Positions 609 through 20,976 of a DNA stretch of 22,524 nucleotides are shown here, in pieces. The notes under the pieces are model-generated. The model did not search any database and was not told the origin of the DNA. It saw only the letters and a program-made list of their open reading frames with translations. Every line of letters begins with the position of its first letter. The first letter of the stretch is position 1. The stretch is from Eubacteriales bacterium (GTDB lineage: Bacteria; Bacillota; Clostridia; Lachnospirales; Lachnospiraceae). Location: positions 1 to 22,524 of the forward strand of contig JAWXVF010000028.1 of the NCBI GenBank assembly GCA_044425555.1, in the 5' to 3' direction. The translations under genes and the position numbers were made by a program.

Positions 609-1553
609 ATGGATAACCAAAAAATTTTTTTTTCATACGATGAACAAATTCAAAAACTAAAAGATAAAGGTTTAATTATTAGTGATGAAATAGTTGCAGT
701 TCAGTTATTAAAGCGATATAGTTATTATGCCTTAATCTCTGGATATAAATACCCTTTTAAATCTAAAGACAATCAATATAAAATAAAAACAACAATAGAA
801 GATATATACACTATGTATAAATTCGATGAAGATTTAAGGCATTTATTTTTAAAGAATATATTGGAAGTAGAAAATCACATTAAATCATTAATATCATATG
901 CGTTTTGTTCGCAATATGGTGAGAGTCAATCATATTATTTAAGCAAAGATTGTTATAATAATATAAATGATAACCATGATGGTATAGATAAATTAATTGT
1001 AACTTTCCAAGGATATATTGATAGTCCAGGAAGTTATAGATATATGAGTTATCATCAAAAAAAGTATCATAACATACCATTGTGGGTCATGATGAAAGCA
1101 CTAACGTTGGGTTCAGTTTCTCGAATGTATAGTTTATTAGATTTTAGTATTCAAGGTACAATTAGTAAGGAGTTTGATGGAATCAATGAAAGTAGTTTAG
1201 GTAAGATGTTAGATTTATTGGCGAGGATTCGTAATGTTTCAGCACATAATGAGCGTCTATTCAATTATAGATATAAAAGAAGGACAATTAATGATACATT
1301 CATACATAGTGAATTAAATATACCCAAGAAAAACGGACAATATAGTAAAGGGAAGAATGATTTATTGGCGGTGATTATTGCTTTTCAATTTTTGCAAGAT
1401 AGAGAAGATTTTTTGCATTTAATCAAAACTCTAGATGATATGATAAATAAATTATGTAATGAAGTGAAAAATTTGGACAAATTACAAATTTATAAATATA
1501 TGGGTTTACCTAATAATTGGTTGCAAGTAGCAGATATAAGTAGAAATAGATAA
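609..1553 (+). CDS. Abortive-infection protein, Abi_2 family (AbiD/AbiF-like), HEPN ribonuclease-type
   Basis: 314-aa ORF with an RBS. It carries the Rx4H HEPN motif R-NVSA-H (nt 1230-1247) inside ARIRNVSAHNERLFN, typical of the Abi_2 family. N-terminal YDEQIxxLKxKGL and LKxxSYYxLxxY resemble AbiD/AbiF proteins. Confidence 0.8.
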   Translation: MDNQKIFFSYDEQIQKLKDKGLIISDEIVAVQLLKRYSYYALISGYKYPFKSKDNQYKIKTTIEDIYTMYKFDEDLRHLFLKNILEVENHIKSLISYAFCSQYGESQSYYLSKDCYNNINDNHDGIDKLIVTFQGYIDSPGSYRYMSYHQKKYHNIPLWVMMKALTLGSVSRMYSLLDFSIQGTISKEFDGINESSLGKMLDLLARIRNVSAHNERLFNYRYKRRTINDTFIHSELNIPKKNGQYSKGKNDLLAVIIAFQFLQDREDFLHLIKTLDDMINKLCNEVKNLDKLQIYKYMGLPNNWLQVADISRNR

Positions 1554-2573: not shown

Positions 2574-4622
2574 ATGGAGGAAAAATTGATAGATACAGAA
2601 TTAAAAAAACTAAAAGAAATGTTATGGAGTGCAGCCGATACCCTACGAGCTGATTCTGGGCTAAAATCAACAGAGTATGCAACACCTATATTAGGGCTTA
2701 TCTTCTTAAGATTTGCAGATAGTAAGTATCGTGAATATGAACATGAAATTCTAGAAGAATACAATCAAAATAAAGGTTCCAGAATGGAACGAGACATTAG
2801 TGAAATAGCAATTGAAAAATGTGGATTTTATTTACCAGATGAAGCAAGATACGATTATCTGCTTAATTTACCAGAAAGTGAAAATATTCCTGAAAAAGTA
2901 AAAGATGCTATGTGTATGGTTGAAAACTACACGAAAACACTTGCAGATACACTACCGAAAGATGAATATTATGCAGTAGATGGAAAAGATGGGAAAGCAG
3001 TTGTGAAAAGGTTATTAAAAGCCTTTAAAGACATACCAGATAATACCACTATTGATATTTTCGGTGAAATATATGAGTATTTCCTTGGTGAATTCGCCCT
3101 TGCAGAAGGACAAGGCGGTGGACAATTCTTCACACCACCATCAGTAGTAAAATATATGGTAGAGGTACTTGCACCTGTAGATGGGGAAATCTTTGATCCT
3201 GCTTGCGGAAGCGGAGGTATGTTTGTACAAGCTGCTCATTATATTCAAAAGCATAAGCAACAAGGCAATCCAATTAATCTACGTGCGTATGGTGTGGAAA
3301 AAGACAAATCCACAGTGAATCTTGCTAAGATTAATATGGTACTTCATAACATTAGAGGTACCATTACAGAAGCCAATAGTTATTATGCAGATCCTTATGA
3401 TTGTTTGGGGAAATTCGATTATGTTATGGCGAATCCTCCATTTAATGTAGATGGGGTGGAACTAGAAGCTGTAAAAAATCAGGAACGCTTTAATACATAT
3501 GGAGTACCACAGAATAAAACCAAAAGTAAAAAATCAGCAGGAGAAACAGTTCCTAATGGAAATTATCTATGGATTAATATGTTCGCTACTTCCCTAAAAG
3601 AAAACAAAGGAAAAGCAGCCCTTGTTATGGCAAATTCTGCCTCCGATGCAGGAAATAGTGAAAAAGAAATCCGTATGAAGTTAATAGAAAGTGGCGTGGT
3701 AAGTCAAATGGTTACTTTACCGTCCAACATGTTTTCCACAGTGACCTTGCCAGCAACCCTTTGGTTTTTCGATGCTAGCCATAAAAAGAAAGAGGAAATA
3801 TTATTCATAGATGCAAGGAATATATTTACACAAGTGGATAGAGCCCATAGAAAATTCACAGAAGAGCAGATTAAAAATCTTGCCATGATATCAAGGTTAT
3901 ACGAAGAAAAAAATGAAGAATATACGGTGTTACTAGACGAATACCAAGGAGAAGTATTAGAGAAATCTGCCTTATACCATGAATTACAAAGTACATGTTC
4001 GGAATTAGTGTATCATCTGTATAAAGATTCTGCTAATGAAATGGTAAAAAAATACAACGATAAAACGTATGTGCCATCTAAAAAAGTGCACGATTTCAAT
4101 GGGGTAGAAGATTATCATTTAATAGAAAAAGATTGTATCCATACAGTGGAACAAGCAAGTGCCATACAATCTATGGTAGAAAATCATACGAAAGAATTAA
4201 AGGAGCAGTTTCACGAGGTAGAAAGAGGAATTCATCAGAACCTAGATACTGCTAGCTATAAAAAAGAAATCATGGAAGCTGTTGATATTTTAAATCAATT
4301 GGATGTGTTAAAAGATGAAATTGTGTATTTCTTAGACCAGTGCATTTGGTTACAAGAACGTTTTCCACAAGGGATTTACCAAGATGTAACAGGACTCTGC
4401 AAAGTAGCCACTCTAGAAGGGGAAGATGGAATCAAAGACCAAGATTATTCTCTCAATCCGGGTAGATATGTAGGTGTTGTTATTGAAGATGATGGTATGA
4501 CAGAAGAGGAATTCAAGGAAGAAATGAGGAGTTTATATGTGGAACTTGAAATGCTAAACCAAGATGCAAGGGAGTTGGAGAGTAAGATAGGGGAGAATTT
4601 GAAGGGGTTGTTTAATGAATAG
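2574..4622 (+). CDS. hsdM: Type I restriction-modification system, N6-adenine DNA methyltransferase subunit M (long form, 682 aa)
   Basis: HsdM_N-like LWSAADTLR...LGLIFLRF, SAM motif I DPACGSGGMF, catalytic NPPF (nt 3432-3443) and C-terminal DYSLNPGRYVG. The real start may be in-frame TTG 2586, which is preceded by GGAGG. Confidence 0.95.
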   Translation: MEEKLIDTELKKLKEMLWSAADTLRADSGLKSTEYATPILGLIFLRFADSKYREYEHEILEEYNQNKGSRMERDISEIAIEKCGFYLPDEARYDYLLNLPESENIPEKVKDAMCMVENYTKTLADTLPKDEYYAVDGKDGKAVVKRLLKAFKDIPDNTTIDIFGEIYEYFLGEFALAEGQGGGQFFTPPSVVKYMVEVLAPVDGEIFDPACGSGGMFVQAAHYIQKHKQQGNPINLRAYGVEKDKSTVNLAKINMVLHNIRGTITEANSYYADPYDCLGKFDYVMANPPFNVDGVELEAVKNQERFNTYGVPQNKTKSKKSAGETVPNGNYLWINMFATSLKENKGKAALVMANSASDAGNSEKEIRMKLIESGVVSQMVTLPSNMFSTVTLPATLWFFDASHKKKEEILFIDARNIFTQVDRAHRKFTEEQIKNLAMISRLYEEKNEEYTVLLDEYQGEVLEKSALYHELQSTCSELVYHLYKDSANEMVKKYNDKTYVPSKKVHDFNGVEDYHLIEKDCIHTVEQASAIQSMVENHTKELKEQFHEVERGIHQNLDTASYKKEIMEAVDILNQLDVLKDEIVYFLDQCIWLQERFPQGIYQDVTGLCKVATLEGEDGIKDQDYSLNPGRYVGVVIEDDGMTEEEFKEEMRSLYVELEMLNQDARELESKIGENLKGLFNE

Positions 4623-4899
4623 TGAATTTTTAATTGACATTACAGAATCAAATAATTTTATAATGAATAATAAACCTAATGGTAAATTTGATAGAAAAAA
4701 AGGAATTGCGTTAATTGAGAAGCATAAATCTAAGGATATTGTTCTTGCTATGATTAACTCACCATCGAATAAGTCATTTATTCTATATGAGAATGCTGAT
4801 AATGAATTAATATATAATGTGTTATGTGAAATTAATGTCTATTTGTCTTGTAAAGAAATAATAAATGAAAATACACAGGATGGAGATGCAAATGACTAA
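4615..4899 (+). CDS. Hypothetical 94-aa protein embedded between hsdM and hsdS
   Basis: Its ATG overlaps the hsdM stop (ATGAATAG), and its stop overlaps a likely hsdS start (ATGACTAA). I recognise no domain. The C-terminus is acidic. Confidence 0.55.
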   Translation: MNSEFLIDITESNNFIMNNKPNGKFDRKKGIALIEKHKSKDIVLAMINSPSNKSFILYENADNELIYNVLCEINVYLSCKEIINENTQDGDAND

Positions 4900-6028
4900 A
4901 ATAAAAGTCAATAAATATGTGACTTTGGATAAAGTAGCATATTTTGCTAATGAGAAAATTGAATCAAAATATTTGAACAATAAAAACTATATTTCAACTG
5001 AAAATATGTTGCCAGATAAAAGTGGGATAACTATTTCTTTAAGTAATCCACAAGGGAACAATAAAAGTAAATTTTCGGAAGATGATATTCTTTTGTCAAA
5101 TATACGACCATATTTCAGAAAAATATGGTTTGCAAATATATCTGGTGGATGTTCTAATGATATATTAGTCTTAAAAGCAAAAGATAATATTTGTCCTAAG
5201 TTTTTATATTATGCGTTATCAGATAATAATTTTTTTAATTATGCTACAGTTACTTCCAAAGGTACTAAAATGCCTAGGGGAAGTAAACATGCAATAATGA
5301 AATATTTAGTTCCTAATTTAGACCAATCAGAACAAAAACGTATTACTAATATCCTATCAACCTACGATGATTTAATAGAAAACAACAATCGTAGAATAGA
5401 ACTACTAGAAAAATCAGCACAAGAGTTATACAAAGAGTGGTTTGTACGTTTTCGTTTTCCTAATTATGAGAATACAAAGTTTGTGAATGGATTGCCAGAA
5501 GGGTGGAGCAAAGGGAAATTTAAAAATAATGTAAAATATATTACGGGTAAATTGGATTCTAATGCCATGAAAGATGAGGGCGAGTTTAGTTTTTACACAT
5601 GTGCAAAGACAATTTATAAGACAAATACTTTTTGTTTTGATGGAGAGTGTGTATTATTAGGTGGTAATAATGCAACGGGAGATTTTTCATTGTTTTATGC
5701 TAATGAAAAATTAGATGCTTATCAGAGAACCTATATTATTACGCCACTTAATAATAATATAGGTTGTTCATATATATATTTCGTGTTGAAAAATTATCTT
5801 ATGCATTTGAAGCATGCTAGCATTGGAGCTACAACTAAATTTTTAACAAAGTCTATATTAGATAAAATTAACATAGTATTACCCGATAAGATGATAGCAA
5901 ATCAATTTAATAAAATTGTTTCTTCAATATTTTTAGAGATGAGTAAACTAAAATTAAACAATGTGAACCTAAAAAAACAGCGTGATTTATTATTACCACG
6001 CTTAATAAGCGGTAAACTGGAGGTGTAA
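4865..6028 (+). CDS. hsdS: Type I R-M specificity subunit S
   Basis: Two variable target-recognition halves are separated by the conserved central helix LIENNNRRIELLEKSAQELYKEWFVRFRFP. The C-terminal conserved helix is LKKQRDLLLPRLISGKL. The likely true start is ATG 4892, 6 nt after GGAG. Confidence 0.9.
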   Translation: MKIHRMEMQMTKIKVNKYVTLDKVAYFANEKIESKYLNNKNYISTENMLPDKSGITISLSNPQGNNKSKFSEDDILLSNIRPYFRKIWFANISGGCSNDILVLKAKDNICPKFLYYALSDNNFFNYATVTSKGTKMPRGSKHAIMKYLVPNLDQSEQKRITNILSTYDDLIENNNRRIELLEKSAQELYKEWFVRFRFPNYENTKFVNGLPEGWSKGKFKNNVKYITGKLDSNAMKDEGEFSFYTCAKTIYKTNTFCFDGECVLLGGNNATGDFSLFYANEKLDAYQRTYIITPLNNNIGCSYIYFVLKNYLMHLKHASIGATTKFLTKSILDKINIVLPDKMIANQFNKIVSSIFLEMSKLKLNNVNLKKQRDLLLPRLISGKLEV

Positions 6029-6029
6029 A

Positions 6030-6557
6030 ATGGCTGATAAAAATCAAACTCATGTGATAGAAAATGTATTTGATAATCTAAAAAAGATTACGCCCGTATT
6101 AATTACTATTGATATTTGTACAGGATTAATTATATTTTTGCCAAGTCATATGCTGGAAAGAATGAAATTGAATTTAATTTCAGATGAGTGGTTGTTATAT
6201 ATTAGCCTAATATTTTTATTTAGTGTATCATTAACAATTGTTATTATATGCTATAATATTGTGAAAGCCAAGCTATTGGAATTTCAGGAAATAAACTTGA
6301 GAAAAAAATTAAGGATTAGGTATATTAATTTAAGTAGTAGCCATAAGTCTCTTATTAGAAACTTATTAAATACTAAAGAGAAAAGTATAGAATTAAATGC
6401 TTATTCAGGAGATGTTGTGTACTTAGAAAATAATATTTTCATTATGTCGTCATCTAACATGACAGGTAGGTACGGTCAGAGTGAAATGTATTTACAATAT
6501 GTGCCACAACCATGGTTATTAGATTTATATAATAAAGAACCAGAATTATTTCAATAA
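6030..6557 (+). CDS. 175-aa two-transmembrane protein embedded between hsdS and hsdR; possibly SieB-like superinfection-exclusion family (tentative)
   Basis: It starts 1 nt after the hsdS stop. Two hydrophobic helices are present (VLITIDICTGLIIFLP and WLLYISLIFLFSVSLTIVIICYNIV), followed by a soluble C-terminal domain. The layout resembles what I recall of PF14163-type proteins. Confidence 0.6.
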   Translation: MADKNQTHVIENVFDNLKKITPVLITIDICTGLIIFLPSHMLERMKLNLISDEWLLYISLIFLFSVSLTIVIICYNIVKAKLLEFQEINLRKKLRIRYINLSSSHKSLIRNLLNTKEKSIELNAYSGDVVYLENNIFIMSSSNMTGRYGQSEMYLQYVPQPWLLDLYNKEPELFQ

Positions 6558-6569
6558 AGGAGGGACACC

Positions 6570-9500
6570 ATGCCAAGCTTCATATCCGAAGACATGATCG
6601 AACAAGCAACCATTCAAAAATTAGTTGAATGTAACCAATACAATTCCATTAATTGCTACACTTCCGATCCTGATACTTTGGAGGATGGAAGTGGTAGGGA
6701 ACATAAAAAGCAAGTGGTGTTACCTACTGTTTTACGTGAGAGTTTAGTACGGTTGAATAAACAGTTACCTATTTCCCTTGTAGAAAAAGTTGCCAAAGAA
6801 TTAGAGAAAACACCCACAACCGCTATGGTAATGGAGGCTAATTACCAATCTTATCAAACCATAAGAAATGGTATTGATGTAGAATATGATGAAAACGGCA
6901 AGAAGAAAAAAGGGAAACTAAAAGTAATTGATTTTACCCATCCAGATCATAATGATTTTACAGTTGTTTCCCAATTATGGATTCGAGGTGAGGTTCATTG
7001 GCGTAGACCAGATTTGATTCTCTATGTAAATGGATTGCCAATGGTATTTATAGAGTTGAAAAACTCTAATATTAAGGTGAAGAATGCCTATGACAAGAAT
7101 CTAATGGATTATAAAAAAGATATCCCTTATTTATTTCAGTATAACCAAGTTTGTGTATTATCCAATGGAACGGAGACGAGGATTGGTAGTTTTGCTGCTG
7201 GGTATGAACACTTTTTTGAGTGGCTGAAAATAGAAGATGAAAAAGAAAATCCCAATCGGAAAGAAATCAAAGACAATGCCATTAGCCTAGAATACTTAAT
7301 AAATGGCTTACTACGAAAAGAAGTATTAATAGATTATATAGAAAATTTTATCTTATACGATAGACAACGAATCAAATTAATTGCCAAGAACCATCAATAT
7401 TTAGGAGTGAATAATGCCTATGAAGCCTTTTTAAAGAGAGAACACCTAGAAGGAAAGTTAGGTGTATTTTGGCATACCCAAGGGAGTGGAAAGAGTTATT
7501 CCATGGTAATGCTTACAAGAAAAATAAAGCATAAAGTAAATGGGAATTTTACTTTTCTAGTAGTGACAGATCGAGTAGATTTAGATGATCAAATATGGAA
7601 AAATTTTTATCGTACAGAATTTATTTCTAAAGATGAAAAAGTTCGCCCTGCAACTGGTGCAAAACTTCGTGAAGAATTAAAGAATCATAAAACCATCTTA
7701 TTTACTACGATTTATAAGTTTAAATACGATAAAGGGAAAGAGTATCCTATTTTATCAGAGCGTGATGATATTGTTGTGATTGTAGATGAAGCACACAGAA
7801 CTCAATATAAGGATTTAGCAGAGAATATGCGAAAAGGATTACCTAATGCACAATTTCTAGCATTTACAGGAACTCCTTTATTAGGAGCAAAGCGATTAAC
7901 CAACGCTTGGTTTGGAGATTATGTTTCAGAATATAATTTTACCCAATCAGTCAATGATCATGTAACAGTTCCATTATATTATATCAATGGTATGAAAGAG
8001 GTACGATTGCAAAATGATTTTCTTGATAGTGATTTGTCAGAAATATTGGAAGATGAAAATCTGTCAGATTCGGAACGAGAAAGACTTGAAAATCAGTATG
8101 CCAAGGAATTAGAAGTGATTAAGCGTGATGATCGATTAAAAACCATAGCAAGACACATTGCATACCATTTTCCACGTAGAGGATTTCTAGGAAAAGGTAT
8201 GGTAATTTCCGTTGATAAATTTACCGTAGTTCGCATGTATGATATGGTAAATAATTACTGGAAGGAAGAAATTAAAAATCTAAATGTGGAGATTACGAAC
8301 ACAGCTGATGAAAATAAGCGTATAGAACTAAAAAGAATGGTAGATTATATGCGAAAAGTACAAATGGCAGTTGTAGTAAGTGGAGAAGAGAAAGAAGAAG
8401 AGAAATTTCAAAAACAAGAACTCACCATAAAAGTACATCGTGATAAAATGAATGCAGTCGATGAAAATGGAATGGATATAGAAGATAATTTTAAAGATGT
8501 CAATCACCCTTTAAGCCTAGTGTTTGTATGTTCTATGTGGTTGACGGGGTTTGACGCACCTTCCATATCTACTTTATATTTGGACAAGCCTATGAAGGGA
8601 CATACTTTGATGCAAACCATTGCTAGAGCTAATCGAGTGTACCCAGAGAAAACAAGTGGCATTGTCATTGGCTATTTAGATGTGTTTAAATCTTTGAAAA
8701 AAGCATTACTAGACTATGCAGCAGGGGATGAGGAAGAGCTACCAGTTAAGAATATTGAGAAATTGTACGAACAGCTTTTAGAAGCTATTGAAATGACGAA
8801 AACCTTTTGTACTACACAAGGCATTGATTTAGCAAGTGTAGAGGAGAAAGAGGATGTGTTTGCCAATTTATCTAAGTTAGAAGAATTTGCCAATATCCTT
8901 GTATCCAATGATGAAGTGAAAAATGAATTTCGAGTTCTTGCTAATACCGTTGGGAATTTATATGAAGCATTACGACCAGATATTTTCAAAATGGATTTTC
9001 GTGCCAATGAAAAAGAAATCATACTATACTTAAAAGGAATCCTTGATGGGAAAATAAGACCTGAAAAGATAGAGGCTGCTAAGTATAAGATAGATGAGTT
9101 GTTAAATCAAAGTATAGTTGCAGAAGAAACGACTACCTATGATGTGGGAAATTCTCAGGAAACTTTACCTGCCATTACCACGTCAGAACCTATTGATTTA
9201 TCGAAAATTGATATAGATGCATTAAAAGAGCAAATGCAGAAAGCAAAATATAAGAATCTAGAAATAGCCAATCTACGTGAGCATATTGAGAAAATTTTGG
9301 CACAGATGATAAAGAAAAATAGAACCCGTACTAGTTTTGCAGAACGATTCCGTCATATTATAGATGAATACAATGCAGGAGGGGCATACAATGATGAGTT
9401 TTATAAAAAGTTATTAGAATTAATGCGAGAATTGCAAGAGGAAGAACGTAGGCATATTAGGGAAGACTTAAGTGAGGAAGAACTGGAATTTTACGATTTG

Positions 9501-9776
9501 TTACAAAAAGATAAATTAACGAAGGAAGAATTAAAGCGTGTAAAACTTGCTGCTAGTACACTCTACCAAACGTTGCTTGCGAAAAAAGAAGAATTATTCG
9601 TAGTAGGGTGGGAAAAAGACGAACAGCCAAAAGAAAAAGTAAGAAAAGAAATTATGGCAATCTTAAATGAATATCTTCCGGATAGTTACAACCGTGAAAT
9701 TTTTGCTAATAAATCGGATGTAGTCTTCTATCATATTGTGGACCAAGCGTTGATGGGATTGAATTGGATTGCTTAG
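6570..9776 (+). CDS. hsdR: Type I R-M restriction subunit R (nuclease plus SF2 helicase/translocase)
   Basis: AGGAGGG RBS. PD-(D/E)xK-type motif PDLILYVNGLPMVFIELK, Walker A HTQGSGKS, DEAH-type VVIVDEAHRTQ, motif VI QTIARANR, and a long helical C-terminal domain. Confidence 0.95.
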   Translation: MPSFISEDMIEQATIQKLVECNQYNSINCYTSDPDTLEDGSGREHKKQVVLPTVLRESLVRLNKQLPISLVEKVAKELEKTPTTAMVMEANYQSYQTIRNGIDVEYDENGKKKKGKLKVIDFTHPDHNDFTVVSQLWIRGEVHWRRPDLILYVNGLPMVFIELKNSNIKVKNAYDKNLMDYKKDIPYLFQYNQVCVLSNGTETRIGSFAAGYEHFFEWLKIEDEKENPNRKEIKDNAISLEYLINGLLRKEVLIDYIENFILYDRQRIKLIAKNHQYLGVNNAYEAFLKREHLEGKLGVFWHTQGSGKSYSMVMLTRKIKHKVNGNFTFLVVTDRVDLDDQIWKNFYRTEFISKDEKVRPATGAKLREELKNHKTILFTTIYKFKYDKGKEYPILSERDDIVVIVDEAHRTQYKDLAENMRKGLPNAQFLAFTGTPLLGAKRLTNAWFGDYVSEYNFTQSVNDHVTVPLYYINGMKEVRLQNDFLDSDLSEILEDENLSDSERERLENQYAKELEVIKRDDRLKTIARHIAYHFPRRGFLGKGMVISVDKFTVVRMYDMVNNYWKEEIKNLNVEITNTADENKRIELKRMVDYMRKVQMAVVVSGEEKEEEKFQKQELTIKVHRDKMNAVDENGMDIEDNFKDVNHPLSLVFVCSMWLTGFDAPSISTLYLDKPMKGHTLMQTIARANRVYPEKTSGIVIGYLDVFKSLKKALLDYAAGDEEELPVKNIEKLYEQLLEAIEMTKTFCTTQGIDLASVEEKEDVFANLSKLEEFANILVSNDEVKNEFRVLANTVGNLYEALRPDIFKMDFRANEKEIILYLKGILDGKIRPEKIEAAKYKIDELLNQSIVAEETTTYDVGNSQETLPAITTSEPIDLSKIDIDALKEQMQKAKYKNLEIANLREHIEKILAQMIKKNRTRTSFAERFRHIIDEYNAGGAYNDEFYKKLLELMRELQEEERRHIREDLSEEELEFYDLLQKDKLTKEELKRVKLAASTLYQTLLAKKEELFVVGWEKDEQPKEKVRKEIMAILNEYLPDSYNREIFANKSDVVFYHIVDQALMGLNWIA

Positions 9777-9781: not shown

Positions 9782-10570
9782 ATGCATGAAAATAAGAGGG
9801 AGGTAATTATGATTGAGAAGACACAAAATGTATTAATATCAACCTTATTAGGTAAGGAACTAATTTTTGAAATTGATAATGATGATTTAAAACCAAAAAC
9901 AATTGAATTGTTCAAGAGGTTTATTTCTCATATTCCGATTGTAGAAATTCAAAATGAAACCTTTTATAGAGCCAGAGTCATTGCTGATGAGGACGGTATG
10001 GAACAAGGAATTGTGAGAGAAAATGGAATTCCAATTACTGGATATAATACAATATATTCAGGTGTTCCGCCAAAAGAAGTGATAAAGCATGAAGGTAGAG
10101 TAAATCGAATAAATGAACAGGTATTATATATTGCAGAAGATCAAGAAACAGCAATTCGTGAACTAAAAGATGAGAAATCTAAATATTTTTCTGTTGCAGA
10201 ATATTTTGTAAAAGAGCCAATTAAGGTGTTTGATTGTTCTGCATTTACGAAAGAACAACTAGAGGAGACATTGTCACCAAGTATTAGAGATGAGTTTGAA
10301 AATAAATATCAGATGTCATTGACAATATTGTATATAAAGCTACAAGAACATTTAACGTTTGGACCATCAAAAAAAGATGGCGAAAAGGAGTATAAATTTT
10401 CCTTAAAAATGATTGATTTCATGAAGGAATATCATAATATATCAGGAGTTAAATATGTTTCGTCGTACACATATAAATCTAATGTAGCAATTTGGGATGA
10501 TAATAAATTTTTGAAATGTGTAAATAGTATGGTTGAACGAAAGAAGGGGAAGCATAACAAAGACAATTAA
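9782..10570 (+). CDS. RES-domain protein (NAD+-targeting toxin superfamily) with no adjacent Xre-type antitoxin
   Basis: The R/E/S signature is in the canonical order: FYRAR..., EGRVNRINEQVLYIAEDQETAIRE, and GVKYVSSYTYKSNVAIWD. The probable true start is ATG 9809, 5 nt after AGAGGGAGG. Confidence 0.75.
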   Translation: MHENKREVIMIEKTQNVLISTLLGKELIFEIDNDDLKPKTIELFKRFISHIPIVEIQNETFYRARVIADEDGMEQGIVRENGIPITGYNTIYSGVPPKEVIKHEGRVNRINEQVLYIAEDQETAIRELKDEKSKYFSVAEYFVKEPIKVFDCSAFTKEQLEETLSPSIRDEFENKYQMSLTILYIKLQEHLTFGPSKKDGEKEYKFSLKMIDFMKEYHNISGVKYVSSYTYKSNVAIWDDNKFLKCVNSMVERKKGKHNKDN

Positions 10571-10613: not shown

Positions 10614-11816
10614 ATGAAATTAAGAAAAATTAACTTTAAAAACCACCCCATTTTAAAAGATTTACAAGTAAGTTTGGAAGATGAAAAAGGGGAAATAGTA
10701 AATACAGTTATATTTATTGGGGATAATGGAAGTGGAAAAACAAGTATTCTTAGAGGAATTTTGGAGAACTTTCAATCTTCTAAGGTTGAAAAATTCCTAA
10801 AAGGAACAGATTTGGATAGTTTAGAGCTTTCTTTTGGAAAAGAACTACTCAAAACAATACCAGATAATGCATTGTCAGAATATTCTGTGATATATTGGGG
10901 AATAAAAAATTCTGTTTTTGCTATTGACGAATCTGATCAGGATGCAACAAGTATAGGAAAGATTGTATTCATGCCAACGGAAATTAATTTTTCTATGGCA
11001 ACTGCAATAGATACAAGAAAAGAAATTCCAGATCAATTTATTAATATTATTGATCAAAAGATTGCAAATGATATATCTTCTTTTGTTGCTACAGCAATTG
11101 AAACAGAAGTATTTAAAAATGAAGATGTGGCAGTAAAAGAAAGTATGAAAAAAGTTTGTGATGAAATCAATTCTATTTTTCAATGTATGGATTTAGAGAT
11201 TGAACTTGTAGGATTATCTAAAGATGAGAAGAAGCAACCTATTTTCAAGAATCACAATAATGATACGTTTGCAATTGAGGATTTATCATCAGGAGAAAAG
11301 CAACTATTCATACGTGCGTTATCTTTAAAGTTTTTAAACATTAATGATTCTATTATTCTTATTGATGAACCTGAAATTTCGCTACACCCACAATGGCAAC
11401 GAAAGATTATCAGCGTATATGAAAGTATTGGTAGGAACAATCAATTAATTATTGCAACTCATTCGCCCCATGTCATAGGAAATATTAGAAAAGAGCAATT
11501 ACGAGTTTTACATCGAGATCATAATGGTATTCAGATAGTGCCAACGGAGGAAGTAGAACGAACATATGGACAGACTATAGAATCCATATTAACTCACAAT
11601 ATGGGACTTGAAAGTGTACGAAATGAAGAATTACAATTTAAAATAGAACAAATTCAAAAATTATTACGAAATGAGAACGCCTTAGAAAATAAGGAATTTC
11701 AAGAATTATTAATAGATATTTCAGAACACCTAGATGATTCCGATGTAGAGATGGCACTTATCAATGCACAAATAAAACGGATGAAAATGAGGGGTACTAG
11801 AAATGTTGAACAATAA
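10614..11816 (+). CDS. ptuA: ABC/SMC-like AAA ATPase, Septu PtuA-like
   Basis: Walker A GDNGSGKTS, signature LSSGEKQ, Walker B IILIDEPEISLHPQWQ, H-loop IIATHSPH. An HNH partner gene overlaps downstream. Confidence 0.75.
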   Translation: MKLRKINFKNHPILKDLQVSLEDEKGEIVNTVIFIGDNGSGKTSILRGILENFQSSKVEKFLKGTDLDSLELSFGKELLKTIPDNALSEYSVIYWGIKNSVFAIDESDQDATSIGKIVFMPTEINFSMATAIDTRKEIPDQFINIIDQKIANDISSFVATAIETEVFKNEDVAVKESMKKVCDEINSIFQCMDLEIELVGLSKDEKKQPIFKNHNNDTFAIEDLSSGEKQLFIRALSLKFLNINDSIILIDEPEISLHPQWQRKIISVYESIGRNNQLIIATHSPHVIGNIRKEQLRVLHRDHNGIQIVPTEEVERTYGQTIESILTHNMGLESVRNEELQFKIEQIQKLLRNENALENKEFQELLIDISEHLDDSDVEMALINAQIKRMKMRGTRNVEQ

Positions 11817-12375
11817 GAAAGCAAATGAGCCATGCGAGTATACGGATTTGGCAAAGAAAGTATCTAATTATCAGGAGTTTGATACTCATATAAAAGAGAT
11901 ATTGAGAGATAATTTCATTTGTGAGCAAGATTCTTACTGTCCATATTGTGAGCGAATTATTGAGAATAATGTTAACAGTTGTCATATTGAACATATAAAG
12001 CCACAATCTGCTTATCCTAATCAGAGCAAAGAGTATACCAATATGATTTTATCTTGTAATAATAAAAATACATGTGGGATACGAAAAGGGAATCAATACC
12101 ATGAGGATTTTATAAATCCTACGATAGAAAATCCAACATTTTATTTAAAATACGATTTAGCGTCAGGTGAAGTTTATTCCGTTGATGATAATCCTAAGGG
12201 AGAGTACACCATTAAAGTTTTGAACTTAAATGACAAAAAACTGAAACAAATGAGAAGGAATAAAATTTTTACTTATATAAATTTAGATAGTTCCATGCAA
12301 TTAAAACTTATAAATTGGGAACTAGAGAATTTGTATGGGAGTAACTTGATTTTCCGCAAATGCATTTGGAATTAA
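11803..12375 (+). CDS. ptuB: HNH endonuclease, Septu PtuB-like / TIGR02646-like (retron-type HNH)
   Basis: It overlaps the ATPase gene by 14 nt. The Cys/His motifs are CPYCERI...SCHIEHIKPQS...NMILSCNNKNTCGIRKGN. Confidence 0.75.
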   Translation: MLNNKKANEPCEYTDLAKKVSNYQEFDTHIKEILRDNFICEQDSYCPYCERIIENNVNSCHIEHIKPQSAYPNQSKEYTNMILSCNNKNTCGIRKGNQYHEDFINPTIENPTFYLKYDLASGEVYSVDDNPKGEYTIKVLNLNDKKLKQMRRNKIFTYINLDSSMQLKLINWELENLYGSNLIFRKCIWN

Positions 12376-13824: not shown

Positions 13825-14814
13825 ATGGAACACACAAACTATGTATTTTATCGTTTGCCAAAGGTATTGTTTACCAATGAGAAATTACACCAATTATCAA
13901 TTGAGGCAAAATTATTGTATACAGTTATGCTAGATCGTCTTTCTTTATCCATAATCAATCAGTGGAAAGATAAGGAAGGAGAAGTATACATTTATTTTAC
14001 TATTGAACATGGGTGTGAACTTTTAGGTAAGAGTTATTCGAAAATATCCAAAGTAATGGCAGAATTAGAAGCACTCAAGTTGATTGTTCGTAAACGCCAA
14101 GGGCAGGGGAAACCATCTAGGATTTATGTGAAAACAGATATGTTACAGACACCTATCATAGAAGCAGAACCTACAAATATAGCGGACAAGATAGGAGATA
14201 TACAAGTATCAAGAGATAGTTCTTTCACGGTTCAAGACCTATTAGAAACAGATACGAATAAGACTAATAGGAATCAAAATAATACCAATAAGATAGAGTC
14301 AATCCATCTATCCTATGAGAATGGGATAGAAGAAGACACTTGTTTAGAAGATGTTATTTTCAAAGAATTGTTAGAGGAACAAACACTACCTAGAGAATAT
14401 CTTTACCAAGAGGAGAAATTAAGGATTGCCTTTCAGATTTTAACGGAACATGAAATATTTGTTAGGAATAGTAAAAAGAATTATGATTCCCAACAAGATT
14501 TAAGTATTTTGAATTTATTGATACAAGCATTATGTGAAATGCTAACCGAGAAAAAGCCTATGCAGATAAAGGGCTATTTAGTTACGGTTAGTCAAGTCTA
14601 CAAAAAATTAATAACCTATCTTAGCTTTGAACATCATCATCCATCTATGTATACATTTTATACAACTGTGATGGATGACTACAAAACAGGCGCTATTCAT
14701 AGTGAAATAAAACATCATCTTGGCTATATGAAAGCATGTATCTGGAATGTTTTGCTAGTAGGAGACATTAGCCTTCAAACGAAATTGTTAAATCACTTTG
14801 GAGGGCAAATGTAA
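13825..14814 (+). CDS. Replication initiator protein, RepA_N family
   Basis: The N-terminus YVFYRLPKVLF...LSIEAKLLYTVMLDRLSLS...VRKRQGQGKPSRIYV is the typical RepA_N signature. RBS AAAGGGGGA. Confidence 0.85.
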   Translation: MEHTNYVFYRLPKVLFTNEKLHQLSIEAKLLYTVMLDRLSLSIINQWKDKEGEVYIYFTIEHGCELLGKSYSKISKVMAELEALKLIVRKRQGQGKPSRIYVKTDMLQTPIIEAEPTNIADKIGDIQVSRDSSFTVQDLLETDTNKTNRNQNNTNKIESIHLSYENGIEEDTCLEDVIFKELLEEQTLPREYLYQEEKLRIAFQILTEHEIFVRNSKKNYDSQQDLSILNLLIQALCEMLTEKKPMQIKGYLVTVSQVYKKLITYLSFEHHHPSMYTFYTTVMDDYKTGAIHSEIKHHLGYMKACIWNVLLVGDISLQTKLLNHFGGQM

Positions 14815-14820
14815 AGGCAA

Positions 14821-14920
14821 CACACCCAAAGGGTGTGGCAAGCATCCTATCTGTAAGACGCTAACGCATCTTAATCATAAGATTTACAATCTTATGATGG
14901 ATAGGTTCCTGCTAACGCAG
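14821..14920 (+). promoter_or_regulatory. Candidate origin of transfer (oriT) upstream of mobC and the relaxase gene
   Basis: Hairpin CACACCC-AAA-GGGTGTG (14821-14837). An 11-bp perfect inverted repeat, ATCATAAGATT-tac-AATCTTATGAT (14874-14898), is flanked by CCTATC (14846-14851) and GATAGG (14900-14905). The 9-bp direct repeat GCTAACGCA occurs at 14860-14868 and 14911-14919. Confidence 0.5.
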
Positions 14921-14937
14921 ATAAAAAAATAAAAGAA

Positions 14938-15273
14938 ATGGAGAAGTGGAAAATGAATAAAACAAATAGTATTACCTTTCGTGTATCAGACCATGATAAA
15001 AAATCAATTGTAGCAAGAGCGAAAAAAGGGAAGATGAAAACTTCTGATTTCTGTCGTTATGCTGTATTAGGAAAGGAAGTACGACACATTGAAGGGCTAA
15101 AGGAATTGATATTTGAATTAAATAAGATTGGAAATAATCTAAACCAATTAACGGTATTATGTCACCAAAGACGAGTGGATAATCCTAATTTAGAAGAAAT
15201 AACTTACCAATTAAATAGCGTATTTGATGTAATCGTAATGGTACTAGGAGGTGATGACTATAGCAATTGTTAA
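14938..15273 (+). CDS. mobC: Relaxosome accessory protein MobC
   Basis: The ELNKIGNNLNQLTVL motif is typical of the MobC family, with a ribbon-helix-helix-like N-terminus (ITFRVSDHDKKSI). The likely start is ATG 14953, after GGAGAAGTGG. Confidence 0.85.
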   Translation: MEKWKMNKTNSITFRVSDHDKKSIVARAKKGKMKTSDFCRYAVLGKEVRHIEGLKELIFELNKIGNNLNQLTVLCHQRRVDNPNLEEITYQLNSVFDVIVMVLGGDDYSNC

Positions 15274-16417
15274 ACCCATTAAAGTACGAAGTGGAAATTT
15301 GGCTGGACTGAAAGGAGTTTTAACTTATATTCAAGAAGACCATAAAACAGAAGATGGAAAGCTTGTGTGGGGAAAAGATTTGGTAAAAGGGAAGGAATTT
15401 GAGCAGATGTTTATTACAAAAAAAATGCATCAGAAAATAAGCGGTAGACAGTATGCTCATTTTGTGCAAAGTTTTGGTGTAGATGATTTAGTGACACCAG
15501 AGATGGCGTTTACAATTTCTAAGGAATTTATTAAGCGTAATCACAAGTTTGATGATTTCCAAGTGGTATCTGCAGTGCATACAAATGAGAAGCATATGCA
15601 TATTCATTATATTGTGAATTCGGTTGGCATAGAAAAAGGAGAGAAGTGGCAATGCTCCCCTAAAGATTTAGAAAAAATGCGTAATATTTCAGATGAATTA
15701 TGCTACGAGTATGGTTTATCGGTTATTGAACATCGAGGGAACTTCCATCAAAAATATGGGGAATATAAAGCATTTAAAAGTTGGAAACAACAACTTGCAA
15801 GTGACATTGCAAAAAGTGTAGAAGAAAGTTTTTCACTGGAAGATTTCTACCACAATTTAGATAGCAGGGGGATTGATTGTAGTTTTGGTAATCATAATAT
15901 TATGTTTCAGGTGTTTGCTGGGTATTGTGGCTTAAACGGGGAACGATTCTGTAGCAATTATAAGCTAATGTCCTATGGAGATTTTAGTAGGGAGAATATC
16001 TTAAATAGTGTAGATTATAATGATTATAATCTAAAATCAGGATTAATTGCTATACATCAAGGTGGTGATATTTTTCAGGAATTAGCACAACTTGATATAT
16101 GGGGAAAGGAAGATATGAATATAGATATGTCTAGCTTGTATCAGGCAGTAATACAAGAAATAGAATTTAAAGGAAAACCGTGGTATCAGATACAGACTAT
16201 TATTGTCCAATTACATGCAGACCAAATGAAACAAAAATTAGCTAGAGAAGGGCTATTGGCACTACATGAACAAAAGAAACAGAGAAAACAGCAAAACATA
16301 TTTCTGCCATCAATCTGCAATCTACTTGAAGAGTTTTATTATTGGAAATACCAAAAAGAACTTAATAGAAATGACAGGTATAGAGAAGAAGAGTTAGAAG
16401 ATATGTGGGAACTCTAA
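15251..16417 (+). CDS. Relaxase/mobilisation nuclease (MobA/VirD2-type)
   Basis: N-terminus TIAIVKPIKV..., the histidine triad region HTNEKHMHIHYIVNSV, and AGGAGG immediately upstream. It overlaps the mobC 3' end. Confidence 0.9.
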   Translation: MMTIAIVKPIKVRSGNLAGLKGVLTYIQEDHKTEDGKLVWGKDLVKGKEFEQMFITKKMHQKISGRQYAHFVQSFGVDDLVTPEMAFTISKEFIKRNHKFDDFQVVSAVHTNEKHMHIHYIVNSVGIEKGEKWQCSPKDLEKMRNISDELCYEYGLSVIEHRGNFHQKYGEYKAFKSWKQQLASDIAKSVEESFSLEDFYHNLDSRGIDCSFGNHNIMFQVFAGYCGLNGERFCSNYKLMSYGDFSRENILNSVDYNDYNLKSGLIAIHQGGDIFQELAQLDIWGKEDMNIDMSSLYQAVIQEIEFKGKPWYQIQTIIVQLHADQMKQKLAREGLLALHEQKKQRKQQNIFLPSICNLLEEFYYWKYQKELNRNDRYREEELEDMWEL

Positions 16418-16683
16418 TAGCTTGTCATAAAAAGAAAGCAATTCACATAATATTAAACAGCATAATGGAGGTGCAGGAGATGAAAGAAAAGGAAAAATTA
16501 AATATTACATTTCATAATCCAAACACTGGCGATGAGTTAATTAAGGAGTTGATTAGAATTTCTGCGTCAATGGCACATGAAACGGTGAAGAAAAAATTAC
16601 TTGCACTGGAACAAGAAGAAATGAATACATATACTTTGCAAAATGAAACACAAGATAATGAAGATGATGAATGGGAACGATAG
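16405..16683 (+). CDS. Small hypothetical protein; likely start at ATG 16480
   Basis: GGAGG (16467-16471) lies 8 nt before ATG 16480, giving MKEKEKLNITFHNPNTGDELIKELIR.... The C-terminus is acidic. I recognise no domain. Confidence 0.5.
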   Translation: MGTLIACHKKKAIHIILNSIMEVQEMKEKEKLNITFHNPNTGDELIKELIRISASMAHETVKKKLLALEQEEMNTYTLQNETQDNEDDEWER

Positions 16684-16694
16684 GATAGGGATTG

Positions 16695-16733
16695 GGGAAT
16701 AACTTTTACAAGGAGTTATTCCCTTCCTTCTTT
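16695..16733 (+). terminator. Intrinsic terminator ending the rep-mob transcription unit
   Basis: 10-bp stem, GGGAATAACT (16695-16704) pairing with AGTTATTCCC (16714-16723), with a 9-nt loop and a T-rich tail ttccttcttt. Confidence 0.7.
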
Positions 16734-16785
16734 ACATGAGTCAAAAGTTGCTAAAAGAAAATATGATAATTTTCTAGGAAATAGA

Positions 16786-16814
16786 TTGACACATTAACAT
16801 AATGGACTTATAAT
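16786..16814 (+). promoter_or_regulatory. Perfect consensus sigma-A promoter: TTGACA, 17-nt spacer, TATAAT
   Basis: TTGACA at 16786-16791 and TATAAT at 16809-16814, with a 17-nt spacer. It lies upstream of the AlbA_2 gene and recombinase gene pair. Confidence 0.6.
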
Positions 16815-16860
16815 AAAATAGATGTAACAGATATAGAAAAATAACGAATAATATGTCGAA

Positions 16861-18396
16861 ATGGAGGTAATCATGGGGATAGCAACCAATATCAAGACTT
16901 TGCTATCAGGGAATGTAGTTGAATGGGCAAGAATTGAATACAAAGAAACATGGGATGCTGTTGCTTCTTTGAAAACTATATGTGCATTTGCTAATGATCT
17001 TGATAATTGGGGTGGTGGATATCTTGTCATAGGTGTTAAGGAGGAAGAAGGTCGTCCAATATACCCATTACAAGGAATAGCAACTGATAAAATAGATAGT
17101 CATCAAAAGGATATTCTATCAAAATGTAAACTGATTCGTTCAGAATATATGCCAATAATAGAAGTAGTGGAATATCAAGAGAGAAACTTTATCATACTTT
17201 GGTGTCCAGGAGGAAATACAAGACCTTATTCATCACCTAAGACTATGGGTAAAGATAATAAAGATCGGATTTATTATATACGCAAAGGGTCAAGTACCAT
17301 AATCCCAACTTCAGAAGAAGAGAAGGACTTATTTCATTTAGCCAATCGAGTACCTTTTGATGATAGAATAAATAATCAAGGGGAAATGACAGATTTGAAT
17401 ATTACACTGATTCAAAGTTATTTGAAGGAAGTAAATAGTTCTTTGTTTGAAAAATTAAAAACAGAGGATTTTACTTCTGTTTGTCGTGATATGAATATTA
17501 TTGGGAATCTTCCAGAATATACGAAACCTAAAAATATAGGACTTATGTTCTTTAGTCTAGAACCAGAAAAGTTCTTCCCCTATGCCCAAATAGACGTAGT
17601 GCAATTTCCACAAGGATTAGGGGGCGATAATATCATAGAGCAAACTTTTAAAGGACCCATTCAGCAACAACTAAGAGATGCACTTATATATATTAAAAAT
17701 ACAATTATTACAGAAAAAGTGATTAAACACCCTCATAAGGCAGAAGCAGATCGGTTTTTCAATTATCCTTATGCTGCCATTGAAGAAGCCTTATCTAATG
17801 CAGTGTATCATAGAGGTTATGATGAAAGAGAACCCATTGAAGTACGTGTAGAGAATGATAGGATAGAGATTGTAAGCTTTCCTGGTCCGGATCGTTCAGT
17901 AACCGATGAAGGTCTGAAAAGTTATCGTGTGTCCAATCGCAGATATAGAAATAGAAGAATTGGAGAGTTTTTAAAAGAATTGCATTTGACAGAAGGAAGA
18001 AATACAGGATTTACAAAAATATTAAATGCTTTGAACGCAAATGATTCCCCACAGCCTGAATTCGAAACTGATGAGGATAGAACTTATTTTATTGCAAGAT
18101 TTTTCATACATGAATGTTTTAAAATAGAAAAATATGGAGTGGATTTAGAAGTAGAAACACCTTCAATAACACCTTCAATAGCACCTTCAAAAAGCGATCT
18201 GCTATTACAAGAAAAAATCATTAAATTAATAAGAAAAAATCCTAAAATTACAAGAAAAGATATGGAAAACAAATTGAAAATTTCTGAATTTATGTTAAGA
18301 AAACAAGTGGAATTTTTAAAGAAAAATAATACCATCGAGTACGTAGGTTCTAGCAAAGGTGGTAATTGGATTATAAATAGGGAGGGCAACTCATGA
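16861..18396 (+). CDS. AlbA_2 (Schlafen-like 'divergent AAA') / HATPase_c_4-like ATP-binding protein with a C-terminal winged HTH
   Basis: N-terminus GNVVEWARIEYKETW...ICAFANDLDNWGGGYLVIGV is AlbA_2-like. The central region EEALSNAVYHRGYDEREPIEVRV...GRNTGFTKI follows. The C-terminal HTH is KIIKLIRKNPKITRKDMENKLKISEFMLRKQVEFLKKNN. The likely start is ATG 16873, after GGAGG. Confidence 0.75.
   Translation: MEVIMGIATNIKTLLSGNVVEWARIEYKETWDAVASLKTICAFANDLDNWGGGYLVIGVKEEEGRPIYPLQGIATDKIDSHQKDILSKCKLIRSEYMPIIEVVEYQERNFIILWCPGGNTRPYSSPKTMGKDNKDRIYYIRKGSSTIIPTSEEEKDLFHLANRVPFDDRINNQGEMTDLNITLIQSYLKEVNSSLFEKLKTEDFTSVCRDMNIIGNLPEYTKPKNIGLMFFSLEPEKFFPYAQIDVVQFPQGLGGDNIIEQTFKGPIQQQLRDALIYIKNTIITEKVIKHPHKAEADRFFNYPYAAIEEALSNAVYHRGYDEREPIEVRVENDRIEIVSFPGPDRSVTDEGLKSYRVSNRRYRNRRIGEFLKELHLTEGRNTGFTKILNALNANDSPQPEFETDEDRTYFIARFFIHECFKIEKYGVDLEVETPSITPSIAPSKSDLLLQEKIIKLIRKNPKITRKDMENKLKISEFMLRKQVEFLKKNNTIEYVGSSKGGNWIINREGNS
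18157..18192 (+). repeat. Three tandem 12-nt repeats inside the AlbA_2-like ORF, in the linker before the wHTH
   Basis: ACACCTTCAATA, ACACCTTCAATA, GCACCTTCAAAA encode TPSI-TPSI-APSK. Unit-number changes would stay in frame. Confidence 0.8.
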
Positions 18397-19931: not shown

Positions 19932-20064
19932 AGATATAACAGACCGTTTAATGCAAATCAATCCAACCTTAGCAATGGAAGCTAGAAAAATATTGGATGT
20001 GAATAAATCAGAACGTCATATTCGTGGTGGATTGGCAACGAAAGAAAAATATTCACACAGTTAA
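19927..20064 (+). pseudogene. spoIIID: 3' segment of the split sporulation regulator gene spoIIID (C-terminal half only)
   Basis: The in-frame translation HKDITDRLMQINPTLAMEARKILDVNKSERHIRGGLATKEKYSHS* is collinear with the C-terminal half of B. subtilis SpoIIID as I recall it (HKDLTERLPEINPDLANEVKEILDYHKSIRHLRGGEATKLKYK). There is no RBS and no N-terminal HTH half. An upstream in-frame stop lies at 19909-19911, inside the recombinase ORF. Confidence 0.8.
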
Positions 20065-20078
20065 GCGGAAACGGGATT

Positions 20079-20100
20079 GCATCTATTAGGGTGCTTTTCT
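20079..20100 (+). terminator. Weak candidate terminator after spoIIID
   Basis: 5-bp stem, GCATC pairing with GGTGC (one G-U pair), a 6-nt loop, and a TTTTCT tail. Confidence 0.3.
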
Positions 20101-20884: not shown

Positions 20885-20976
20885 GAAAATCATAAGGTGT
20901 TTGGACACTGGTATTATTAAGATAATAATAAAACATAAAATAAGTATGATGGATACGGTAAGAGAATGGAGTATTT

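Follow-up and report, generated by a model that had tools for sequence, protein, structure and literature searches.

The window analyzed here, a 22,524-nucleotide stretch of DNA (contig JAWXVF010000028.1) from a bacterium of the Lachnospiraceae, carries a type I restriction-modification (R-M) operon in which an additional open reading frame (ORF) of 175 codons is lodged between hsdS and hsdR. Its predicted product, designated SieBL, is on sequence grounds a genuine member of the SieB family (PF14163), to which the SieB proteins of phages lambda and P22 belong. Close relatives occupy the same position in type I operons of other Clostridia, and this embedding is beyond chance. We are inclined, with modest confidence, to view SieBL as an autonomous SieB-type effector of abortive infection (Abi) or exclusion, which would be co-expressed with the intact type I operon as embedded cargo. 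We infer its defence function, its membrane-damage mechanism and its autonomy from the R-M complex from family membership and genomic context. A functional coupling to R-M would be the striking part of such an arrangement, but part of the evidence points in the opposite direction.

Position, family and predicted structure of SieBL

The SieBL gene begins with ATG on the + strand at position 6030, separated by the single base 6029 from the TAA of hsdS (6026–6028). Its own TAA (6555–6557) is followed by a 12-nucleotide spacer (6558–6569) and by the ATG of hsdR at 6570. The original prediction, made from the letters alone, had described an ORF of 175 amino acids 1 nt behind the hsdS stop and 12 nt ahead of hsdR, and the exact positions agree. 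Matches to Pfam, PADLOC and TIGR00348 also bear out the identity that it gave to the two neighbors, and HsdM completes the type I system. HsdR has a HindI-like C-terminus and contains the DEAH box. The SieBL frame is more than a chance ORF because it extends over 175 codons in DNA of 26% GC, matches Pfam with an E-value of 7e-14 and has 155 homologues aligned end to end. These homologues (E≤1e-3 among 1.84 billion representatives, nearly all 165–180 amino acids long) come from an exhaustive search of the representatives; a word-indexed search with the single SieBL sequence returned only SieBL itself. A scan for promoters and terminators performed no better than on shuffled sequences in this AT-rich DNA (61 promoter-like sites versus 60.4 expected). 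The same scan gave no terminator-like site on the + strand between hsdS and ptuB, the sole site on that strand (position 3199) lying inside hsdM.

Comparison with the PF14163 (SieB) profile gave 52 bits against a gathering cut-off of 26 (E=7.4e-14), residues 26 to 169 aligning with profile positions 3 to 145 (143/147 covered). This was the sole Pfam match of SieBL, and all 55 hits of a profile search with the SieBL family carry PF14163. BLASTP aligned SieBL with lambda SieB (NC_001416, 34482–35036) at 21% identity over 116 amino acids (E=2e-4), and hhalign of a 41-sequence SieBL family profile against the same protein resulted in a probability of 93.6% (E=2.2e-7, 136 columns). Furthermore, the top Foldseek match among the predicted viral structures of BFVD was the P22 protein Q38660 (probability 1.0, E=0.037, 110 columns at 3.5 Å). 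Q38660 is a 195-amino-acid ORF from the P22 'initial portion of N operon', the region to which P22 sieB maps. The identical protein in NCBI is named 'MAG: super-infection exclusion protein B [Eubacteriales bacterium]'. The likeness to SieB-type superinfection-exclusion proteins put forward in the original prediction is upheld by the Pfam score and by the lambda profile and P22 fold matches; the relation to the two phage proteins appears distant but consistent.

No match to SieBL was found in PADLOC-DB v2, PHROGs, NCBIfam or the PDB sequences, nor by tblastn against 50,697 phage records. PADLOC-DB v2 contains no model that detects the family, so that annotation of defence genes with this library will overlook SieBL. 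The length is kept at 174–176 amino acids across homologues of 35–54% identity. In an alignment of all clades, the residues G32, P38, F62, G127 and W162 are invariant and the motif Y-x-[PL]-Q-P-W is common to every clade. The window copy is intact and retains all the family-invariant residues.

Hydropathy analysis (Kyte-Doolittle, 19-residue windows) revealed two hydrophobic segments, at residues ~20–39 and ~54–76, the second of which peaks at 2.69. Behind the second segment follows a basic stretch (K79, K81, R91, K92, K93, R95 and R97). The succession of two hydrophobic segments and a basic stretch suggests an N-in/C-in hairpin, and the AlphaFold2 (AF2) model agrees with this topology. The full-length model, built on the 41-sequence alignment, reached a mean pLDDT of 92.5 and a pTM of 0.69. 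Its helix 2–36 comprises an N-terminal amphipathic stretch leading into the first transmembrane (TM) helix. The C-terminal part is predicted to form a compact alpha/beta domain (helices 103–113, 127–134 and 161–169; strands 120–123, 138–140 and 154–159), which gave a pLDDT of 93 when modeled alone. Conserved residues of this domain are G127, Y131, L132 and a Y-x-P-Q-P-W motif that includes W162. The two N-terminal TM helices and the soluble C-terminal domain claimed beforehand are therefore what hydropathy and AF2 both predict. Foldseek searches of the PDB with the C-terminal domain retrieved mostly winged-helix proteins (AbfR2/Lrs14, the MarR-family protein NadR, TcaR, AbsC, HxlR and CodY), with query-normalized TM-scores of 0.5–0.65 and E-values of 0.05 or above. 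Because no E-value was better than 0.05, the domain is named here winged-helix-like and not a proven winged helix-turn-helix.

SieBL resembles the lambda and P22 SieB proteins in belonging to the same family by HMM, profile-profile and fold comparison, in its predicted architecture of an N-terminal pair of TM helices with a cytosolic domain behind it, lambda SieB aligning across both hydrophobic helices, in its size (175 amino acids versus 184 in lambda and 195 for the P22 N-operon ORF) and in the shared residues G32, P38, F62, G127 and W162. It differs from the lambda protein by an identity of only ~21%, and from both by its location in a type I operon on a mobilizable island instead of a prophage PL operon; no phage genes were found in the window, and the prophage setting of SieB is not seen there. 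In P22, a truncated form of SieB, Esc, inhibits SieB, and Esc and the antisense RNA sas constitute a self-immunity layer that is not evident at the window locus. An in-frame TTG (codon L90, 6297–6299) is located 7 nt 3′ of an AGGA (site 6286–6299) at the boundary of the C-terminal domain and would yield an 86-amino-acid C-terminal product. Such a product recalls Esc; in AT-rich DNA a start of this kind easily occurs by chance. Among the relatives, proteins of 82–126 amino acids restricted to the winged-helix-like domain were considered as stand-alone Esc-like inhibitors and are not taken as evidence for a separate form of the protein: P0219 (locus L071), the one with a readable locus, is a full-length gene with an in-frame stop, and those of loci L044–L061 are 3′ remnants.

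Conserved embedding in type I operons

Related loci were gathered from a scan of one genome per species with a 10-sequence alignment (12 loci) and from metagenome contigs (43 loci). They were annotated by phmmer with the Hsd proteins of both operon types described below, and by Pfam on selected genes. The informative set consisted of 23 full-length close-clade copies of 35–54% identity with at least 1 kb of downstream flank. The original prediction had proposed a survey of this kind and had named a lack of embedded homologues as the outcome that would speak against it; this outcome did not occur. In 19 of the 23 relatives, the gene was found between hsdS and hsdR, each time behind hsdS and with hsdR downstream on the same strand. 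The distance from SieBL to hsdR is −4 to 46 nt in 13 of these 19. On the other side, the gap between hsdS and SieBL is −8 to 39 nt wherever a small ORF, orf104, is absent; orf104 precedes SieBL in 7 of the 19.

The embedded operons fall into two type I families. Locus L001 shares the R-M family of the window, with an HsdM 88% and an HsdR 82% identical. Every other embedded operon belongs to a second family (EcoEI-type), which has an HsdR of ~1100 amino acids with DUF4145, ResIII and EcoEI_R_C domains. The HsdM of this second family scores only ~65 bits against that of the window, and the window HsdR finds no match in these operons at E≤1e-4. Their common gene order is Fic, HsdM, variable cargo, HsdS, sometimes an ORF of 104–112 amino acids, SieBL, sometimes more cargo, and HsdR. 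The host genomes belong to Clostridia of the gut and rumen, namely Lachnospiraceae, Oribacterium, Butyrivibrio, Agathobacter and Christensenellaceae. L002 comes from Oribacterium F0262 and L007 from Butyrivibrio NC2002, where the recovered ORF has only 131 codons. In a rough, unbootstrapped neighbor-joining tree, the window copy and L001 form a basal pair, and the non-embedded copies nest within the EcoEI-type group.

The small, conserved ORF orf104 (104–112 amino acids; a weak match to phrog_2542 and no Pfam match) is located 0–4 nt 5′ of SieBL in about one third of the EcoEI-type operons and is absent from the window. It could be a partner or an antidote of SieBL. A Fic-domain gene of ~353 codons stands directly 5′ of hsdM in all SieBL-bearing EcoEI-type operons that extend far enough upstream (L002–L009, L013, L026, L028, L032 and L071). 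The N-terminal DUF4145 is present in seven of the eight EcoEI-type HsdR proteins scanned, L004 being the exception.

Whole-word and accession searches of the literature retrieved no paper linking SieB or PF14163 with R-M operons, and a SieB clade specialized for residence in such operons appears to be undescribed. The 'guilt-by-embedding' survey of Payne et al. (2024) found 3,231 embedded families, and neither SieB nor PF14163 is mentioned in its text or in the supplementary files searched. SieBL resembles such cargo in that it interrupts a complete operon on the same strand, has homologues that are not embedded, and sits among cargo slots of variable content.

Autonomous effector or guard of the R-M complex

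The slot occupied by SieBL was compared in the original prediction with that of PrrC, and it is indeed the equivalent one. According to the literature, the type IC EcoprrI locus harbors PrrC as an embedded gene. The prrC gene is placed there between hsdS and hsdR. Both are non-R-M genes in the same slot, with a plausible second-line Abi function. PrrC is, however, a soluble ABC-ATPase/HEPN tRNA nuclease, whereas SieBL is predicted to combine two TM helices with a winged-helix-like domain and shows no similarity to PrrC in sequence or fold. Pfam detected in SieBL only SieB, and no ABC-ATPase or anticodon-nuclease (HEPN) domain; SieBL is not a PrrC. Latency under the R-M complex is established for PrrC, and for SieBL it is a candidate analogy.

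A closer precedent is Ronin, which consists of RonA, HsdM and HsdS (Silas et al.; bioRxiv 10.1101/2023.04.06.535777). RonA, the cell-death effector, is a 61-amino-acid protein with one TM helix, toxic alone and suppressed by HsdMS, and ArdA, Ocr and Aop1 act as triggers. This is the mechanism that the original prediction had proposed for SieBL, under the assumption that the pairing of a membrane effector with type I R-M was uncharacterized. That assumption holds for the SieB family, for which no such pairing was found in the searchable literature, and fails for membrane effectors in general, as Ronin demonstrates. The two systems have in common a small membrane protein tightly linked to type I hsdS and hsdM, SieBL starting 1 nt behind hsdS. 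They differ in that Ronin, as described, has no hsdR and works as a decoy, and RonA has no soluble domain, whereas the window carries an intact hsdR of 1068 codons and a two-TM SieBL of 175 amino acids.

According to such a PrrC- or Ronin-like explanation, the type I complex (HsdS/HsdM or the HsdR motor) would silence SieBL through its winged-helix domain, and an anti-restriction protein (a DNA mimic or an Stp-like peptide) would free it to kill the cell at the membrane. We regard this as possible but rather unlikely. It is favored by the location of SieBL in the slot of prrC, by the conservation of that slot across two unrelated type I families with a spacing indicative of translational coupling, and by Ronin itself, in which HsdMS keeps a small TM effector in check until ArdA or Ocr triggers it. 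In the AF2 model, the helix at the recognition-helix position (GDVVYLENN) is acidic and hydrophobic, which would favor protein contacts over DNA binding. Recurrent nonsense, frameshifted and truncated copies hint at a costly or toxic gene. The explanation also draws on an independent SieB clade whose gene adjoins that of the SNF2 motor in a type III-like operon.

This second PF14163 clade (P0182, P0176 and P0162; 169–172 amino acids) is ~24% identical to the window SieBL and keeps a fixed position in three loci. The cargo behind the DUF4391 gene that follows it varies, being a 603-amino-acid unknown protein, an SLFN_AlbA_2 protein or an AAA_15/SMC_N ATPase. Beyond this cargo, two loci carry an N6_N4 Mod methyltransferase gene (the contig of the third ends before that point), and L021 alone also carries a ResIII/RE_endonuc Res gene. 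In the all-clade alignment, the SNF2-embedded clade is nearer to the prophage and mobile-element members than to the window clade. The existence of this separate SNF2-adjacent clade implies that embedding in ATP-dependent R-M operons arose at least twice in the family. No description of the SNF2–DUF4391 operon was found in the literature, and a search for DUF4391 gave nothing relevant. The operon may be related to EcoR22I, an SNF2-linked type III system that kills the cell in response to Ocr (bioRxiv 10.1101/2023.04.06.535777).

Several observations weigh against the autonomous effector that we prefer. Within the operons, SieBL was invariably found in the S-R slot and not once in the M-S slot, a stricter placement than a loose hotspot predicts. 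It is the cargo nearest to hsdS in all five operons with extra S-R cargo (L007, L009, L025, L035 and L042). The second clade lies 3–11 nt 3′ of a gene for an SNF2 helicase of ~1075–1105 amino acids and directly 5′ of DUF4391 in 3/3 loci. The predicted winged-helix fold is matched with weak E-values (≥0.05). SieB exclusion has been known for about 50 years, and to our knowledge the trigger and the killing mechanism of SieB have not been worked out, which would make the statement that SieBL works like SieB a shallow one. Extended to the whole family, the guard idea would make SieB proteins the membrane guards of ATP-dependent restriction motors, with the winged-helix domain docked on HsdR/HsdMS or on the SNF2 helicase and released by anti-restriction proteins to cause depolarization; we hold this to be unlikely. 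If true, PrrC and PARIS would have a widespread counterpart that acts at the membrane, and there would be a first mechanistic handle on the sensing of infection by classical SieB.

The evidence for self-contained action comes from the copies that are not embedded, from the other cargo of the S-R slot and from the lack of a motif proper to the embedded clades. Some members of the close clade have no type I genes adjacent. They adjoin GmrSD (L010), a KAP NTPase (L027) or, judged by eye, a HEPN/MNT-like pair (L008, a Neisseriaceae metagenome-assembled genome). In L024 and L037, the gene lies upstream of a type I operon but outside it, accompanied by AbiH or a caspase-like protein in islands next to guaA. 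L070 is a prophage moron between the tail genes and a gene for an 822-amino-acid protein, and was the sole close-clade match in 2.9 million viral contigs. Distant PF14163 members occur in a prophage immunity region (P0155), in integrase islands with ThsB-TIR or HEPN/MNT (P0157 and P0174), in a Tn7-like element with AbiJ (P0165) and in a conjugative T4SS cluster (P0158). Others are carried by a Carnobacterium plasmid of 7 kb and by a megaplasmid of B. cereus, and these plasmid-borne members have no R-M genes in their vicinity. We know of no requirement of lambda or P22 SieB for an R-M system. All these members count against a guard that depends on the R-M complex.

A motif specific to the R-M-embedded clades was sought in the all-clade alignment and none was found, so that no mark of an R-M docking site sets these clades apart. 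The Y-x-PQPW motif was ruled out as such a docking site, as the motif and the invariant residues are also present in prophage and plasmid members. In addition, other cargo is sometimes inserted between SieBL and hsdR. The S-R slot of related operons may contain GmrSD_N-HNH, DUF4062, a HipA-like kinase or DUF6414+NERD, and the M-S slot a STAND-like ATPase, Mrr_cat, NERD, HEPN or unknown proteins. SieBL diverges faster than its operon: pairwise identities average 63% for SieBL, 78% for HsdR and 80% for HsdM, and the Spearman correlation is only 0.34. Some pairs are discordant: L002 and L035 have HsdR proteins 96% identical and SieBL proteins 61% identical, while L004 and L028 have 71% and 82%, respectively. 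The discordant pairs and the weak correlation point to module exchange. An embedded system acting independently has a precedent in TgvAB, which is inserted in a type I operon of V. cholerae, targets modified DNA and works independently of HsdR (PMC11411939); there too, a complete type I operon is interrupted by defence genes on the same strand.

The autonomous effector that we favor would be an inner-membrane protein in which a two-helix hairpin of N-in/C-in orientation is continued by a long basic helix and, in the cytosol, by the winged-helix-like domain. The cytosolic domain would sense a phage-derived cue, or would be regulatory, and the membrane hairpin would then collapse membrane function. 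Phages escaping restriction would be stopped by SieBL as a second layer. In its slot, SieBL would be transcribed with the operon, closely linked to hsdS in translation and passed on together with the R-M genes, and control by the R-M complex would be unnecessary.

Damaged copies are frequent among the relatives. L010 and L042 are frameshifted and L071 contains one nonsense codon. In the human-gut contigs L044–L061, only the last 67–90 codons of the SieBL gene are left, always 30 nt before hsdR. In the 11 of these contigs that reach upstream, a cassette separates hsdS from the remnant and has apparently taken the place of the 5′ part of the gene; its identification as DUF6414+NERD by Pfam comes from L047 alone. 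As the many damaged copies show, the R-M system does not need SieBL, and SieBL is possibly costly.

The same copies bear on two further explanations. SieBL could be a non-toxic accessory subunit, either a membrane anchor of the enzyme near the DNA entry site or a tuner, for example delaying HsdR activity after transfer. The tight coupling to hsdS and hsdR, and a winged-helix-like cytosolic domain on a membrane anchor, would suit such an adaptor. Holubova and colleagues reportedly found type I enzymes to be membrane-associated; a literature search on the membrane localization of these enzymes gave nothing usable. Yet operons of both type I families persist with a disrupted or remnant SieBL gene (L012, L042, L044–L061 and L071), the homologues of plasmids, prophages and non-R-M islands have no R-M enzyme to anchor, and the prototype of the family is an exclusion or Abi factor. 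We consider an accessory subunit improbable. The second explanation is that of an inert passenger, a remnant, silent or in decay, that hitch-hikes where the operon is prone to recombination and has no function in its host. The many truncated, frameshifted or nonsense copies would fit, as would the lower conservation of SieBL compared with the products of hsdM and hsdR (54% versus 82–88% identity between the window and L001). The window copy is nevertheless intact and preceded by a strong Shine-Dalgarno sequence, its invariant residues and its length are conserved, and the AF2 model is very confident. An inert SieBL strikes us as very hard to credit.

The two settings of the family, the hsdS-hsdR slot and the neighborhood of an SNF2 motor, suggest testable partners and triggers, namely the R-M subunits and anti-restriction proteins. 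The predicted architecture provides two modules to dissect, the TM hairpin and the winged-helix-like domain. If SieBL were coupled to R-M, a membrane effector would join the anti-anti-restriction guards PrrC, PARIS and Ronin. If it is not, the type I operons of gut Clostridia would be scaffolds with two cargo slots for defence genes.

The surrounding island and other features

The coordinates of the features are collected in Table 1.

Table 1. Features of the window and of related loci (positions are those of the sequence named in the first column)
Sequence	Feature	Position	Strand	Description and basis
Window	AbiD/Abi_2 gene	609–1553	+	Abi_2 E=2e-43; PADLOC AbiD E=4e-56
Window	DUF4869	1791–2219
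Window	hsdM	2574–4622	+	methyltransferase subunit; HsdM_N + N6_Mtase (Pfam); PADLOC MTase_I E=1e-194; catalytic NPPF motif kept
Window	ORF in hsdM-hsdS slot	4615–4899	+	94 aa; overlaps both neighbors
Window	hsdS	4865–6028	+	specificity subunit; two target-recognition domains; Methylase_S in 2 stretches; PADLOC Specificity_I
Window	Shine-Dalgarno of SieBL, GGAGG	6019–6023	+	within 3′ end of hsdS, 6 nt 5′ of ATG; read from sequence
Window	SieBL, SieB-family (PF14163) gene	6030–6557	+	175 aa
Window	Predicted TM helix 1	6087–6146	+	aa ~20–39; ends in family-wide FLP motif (G32, F36, P38 conserved); hydropathy, AF2 helix 2–36
Window	Predicted TM helix 2	6189–6257	+	aa ~54–76; hydropathy, AF2 helix 52–99
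Window	Predicted basic cytosolic extension of TM helix 2	6258–6326	+	aa 77–99; AF2 continuous helix 52–99, K/R-rich
Window	Predicted winged-helix-like C-terminal domain	6327–6554	+	aa 100–175; AF2, Foldseek, conservation
Window	Shine-Dalgarno of hsdR, AGGAGG	6558–6563	+	in 12-nt spacer, 6 nt 5′ of ATG; read from sequence
Window	hsdR	6570–9776	+	restriction and translocase subunit; 1068 aa; HSDR_N + SWI2_SNF2 + T1R_D3-like + T1RH-like_C; TIGR00348 487 bits
Window	Weak RES-domain protein	9782–10570	+	262 aa; 24.3 bits versus cut-off 23.2
Window	Septu	10614–12375	+	ptuA and ptuB
Window	ptuA	10614–11816	+	PADLOC PtuA E=3e-111
Window	ptuB	11803–12375	+	PADLOC PtuB E=4e-42
L003	orf104	7641–7979
L007	orf104	7665–7979
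L013	orf104	6682–6996
L025	orf104	2856–3170
L035	orf104	1235–1549
L042	orf104	1313–1627
L071	orf104	4092–4406
L021	Second-clade PF14163 gene	6001–6510
L067	Second-clade PF14163 gene	6001–6519
L069	Second-clade PF14163 gene	6001–6510
L047	3′ remnant of SieBL gene (example)	6008–6211
L055	3′ remnant of SieBL gene (example)	6995–7213

Judging from its gene content, the window is a defence island on a mobilizable element. Beyond the R-M and Septu genes, the island continues with DUF6076, RepA_N, NikA/MobC, a relaxase, a Schlafen-AlbA_2 protein, a large serine recombinase, AIM24 and guaA, in this order. The RES-like gene starts 5 nt 3′ of the hsdR stop codon; no Xre-type partner is evident next to it, and the equivalent gene of L001 is unrelated.

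The 94-codon ORF of the window shares 8 nt with the end of hsdM and 35 nt with the annotated start of hsdS, and fills the M-S slot that in related operons holds STAND-like, Mrr, NERD or HEPN genes. It gave no match in Pfam, PADLOC, PHROGs or NCBIfam, and has no similarity to the orf104 family. The HsdM of the window (682 amino acids) contains an insertion of ~110 amino acids (residues ~462–579) between the catalytic domain and the C-terminal helices; the 88% identical HsdM of L001 is 571 amino acids long.

Several of the L044–L061 loci carry multiple hsdS copies. In L030, a tyrosine recombinase gene is located between two hsdS copies, which suggests a shufflon. At another locus, L020, a PF14163 member (5662–6192) lies in a conjugative T4SS cluster, between the gene for a DUF8208 protein and that for a VirB4/TraG-like ATPase, with an overlap of 32 nt. 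Some members of PF14163 may have a role like that of entry exclusion during conjugation.

The mobility part of the island (13825–22524) ends beside guaA. A GMP-synthase gene is also found beside related islands, in L013 (141–1124, Pfam GMP_synt_C) and, by eye, in L024 (1–330) and L037 (3–1319). This recurrence suggests a guaA-adjacent integration hotspot in these Clostridia.

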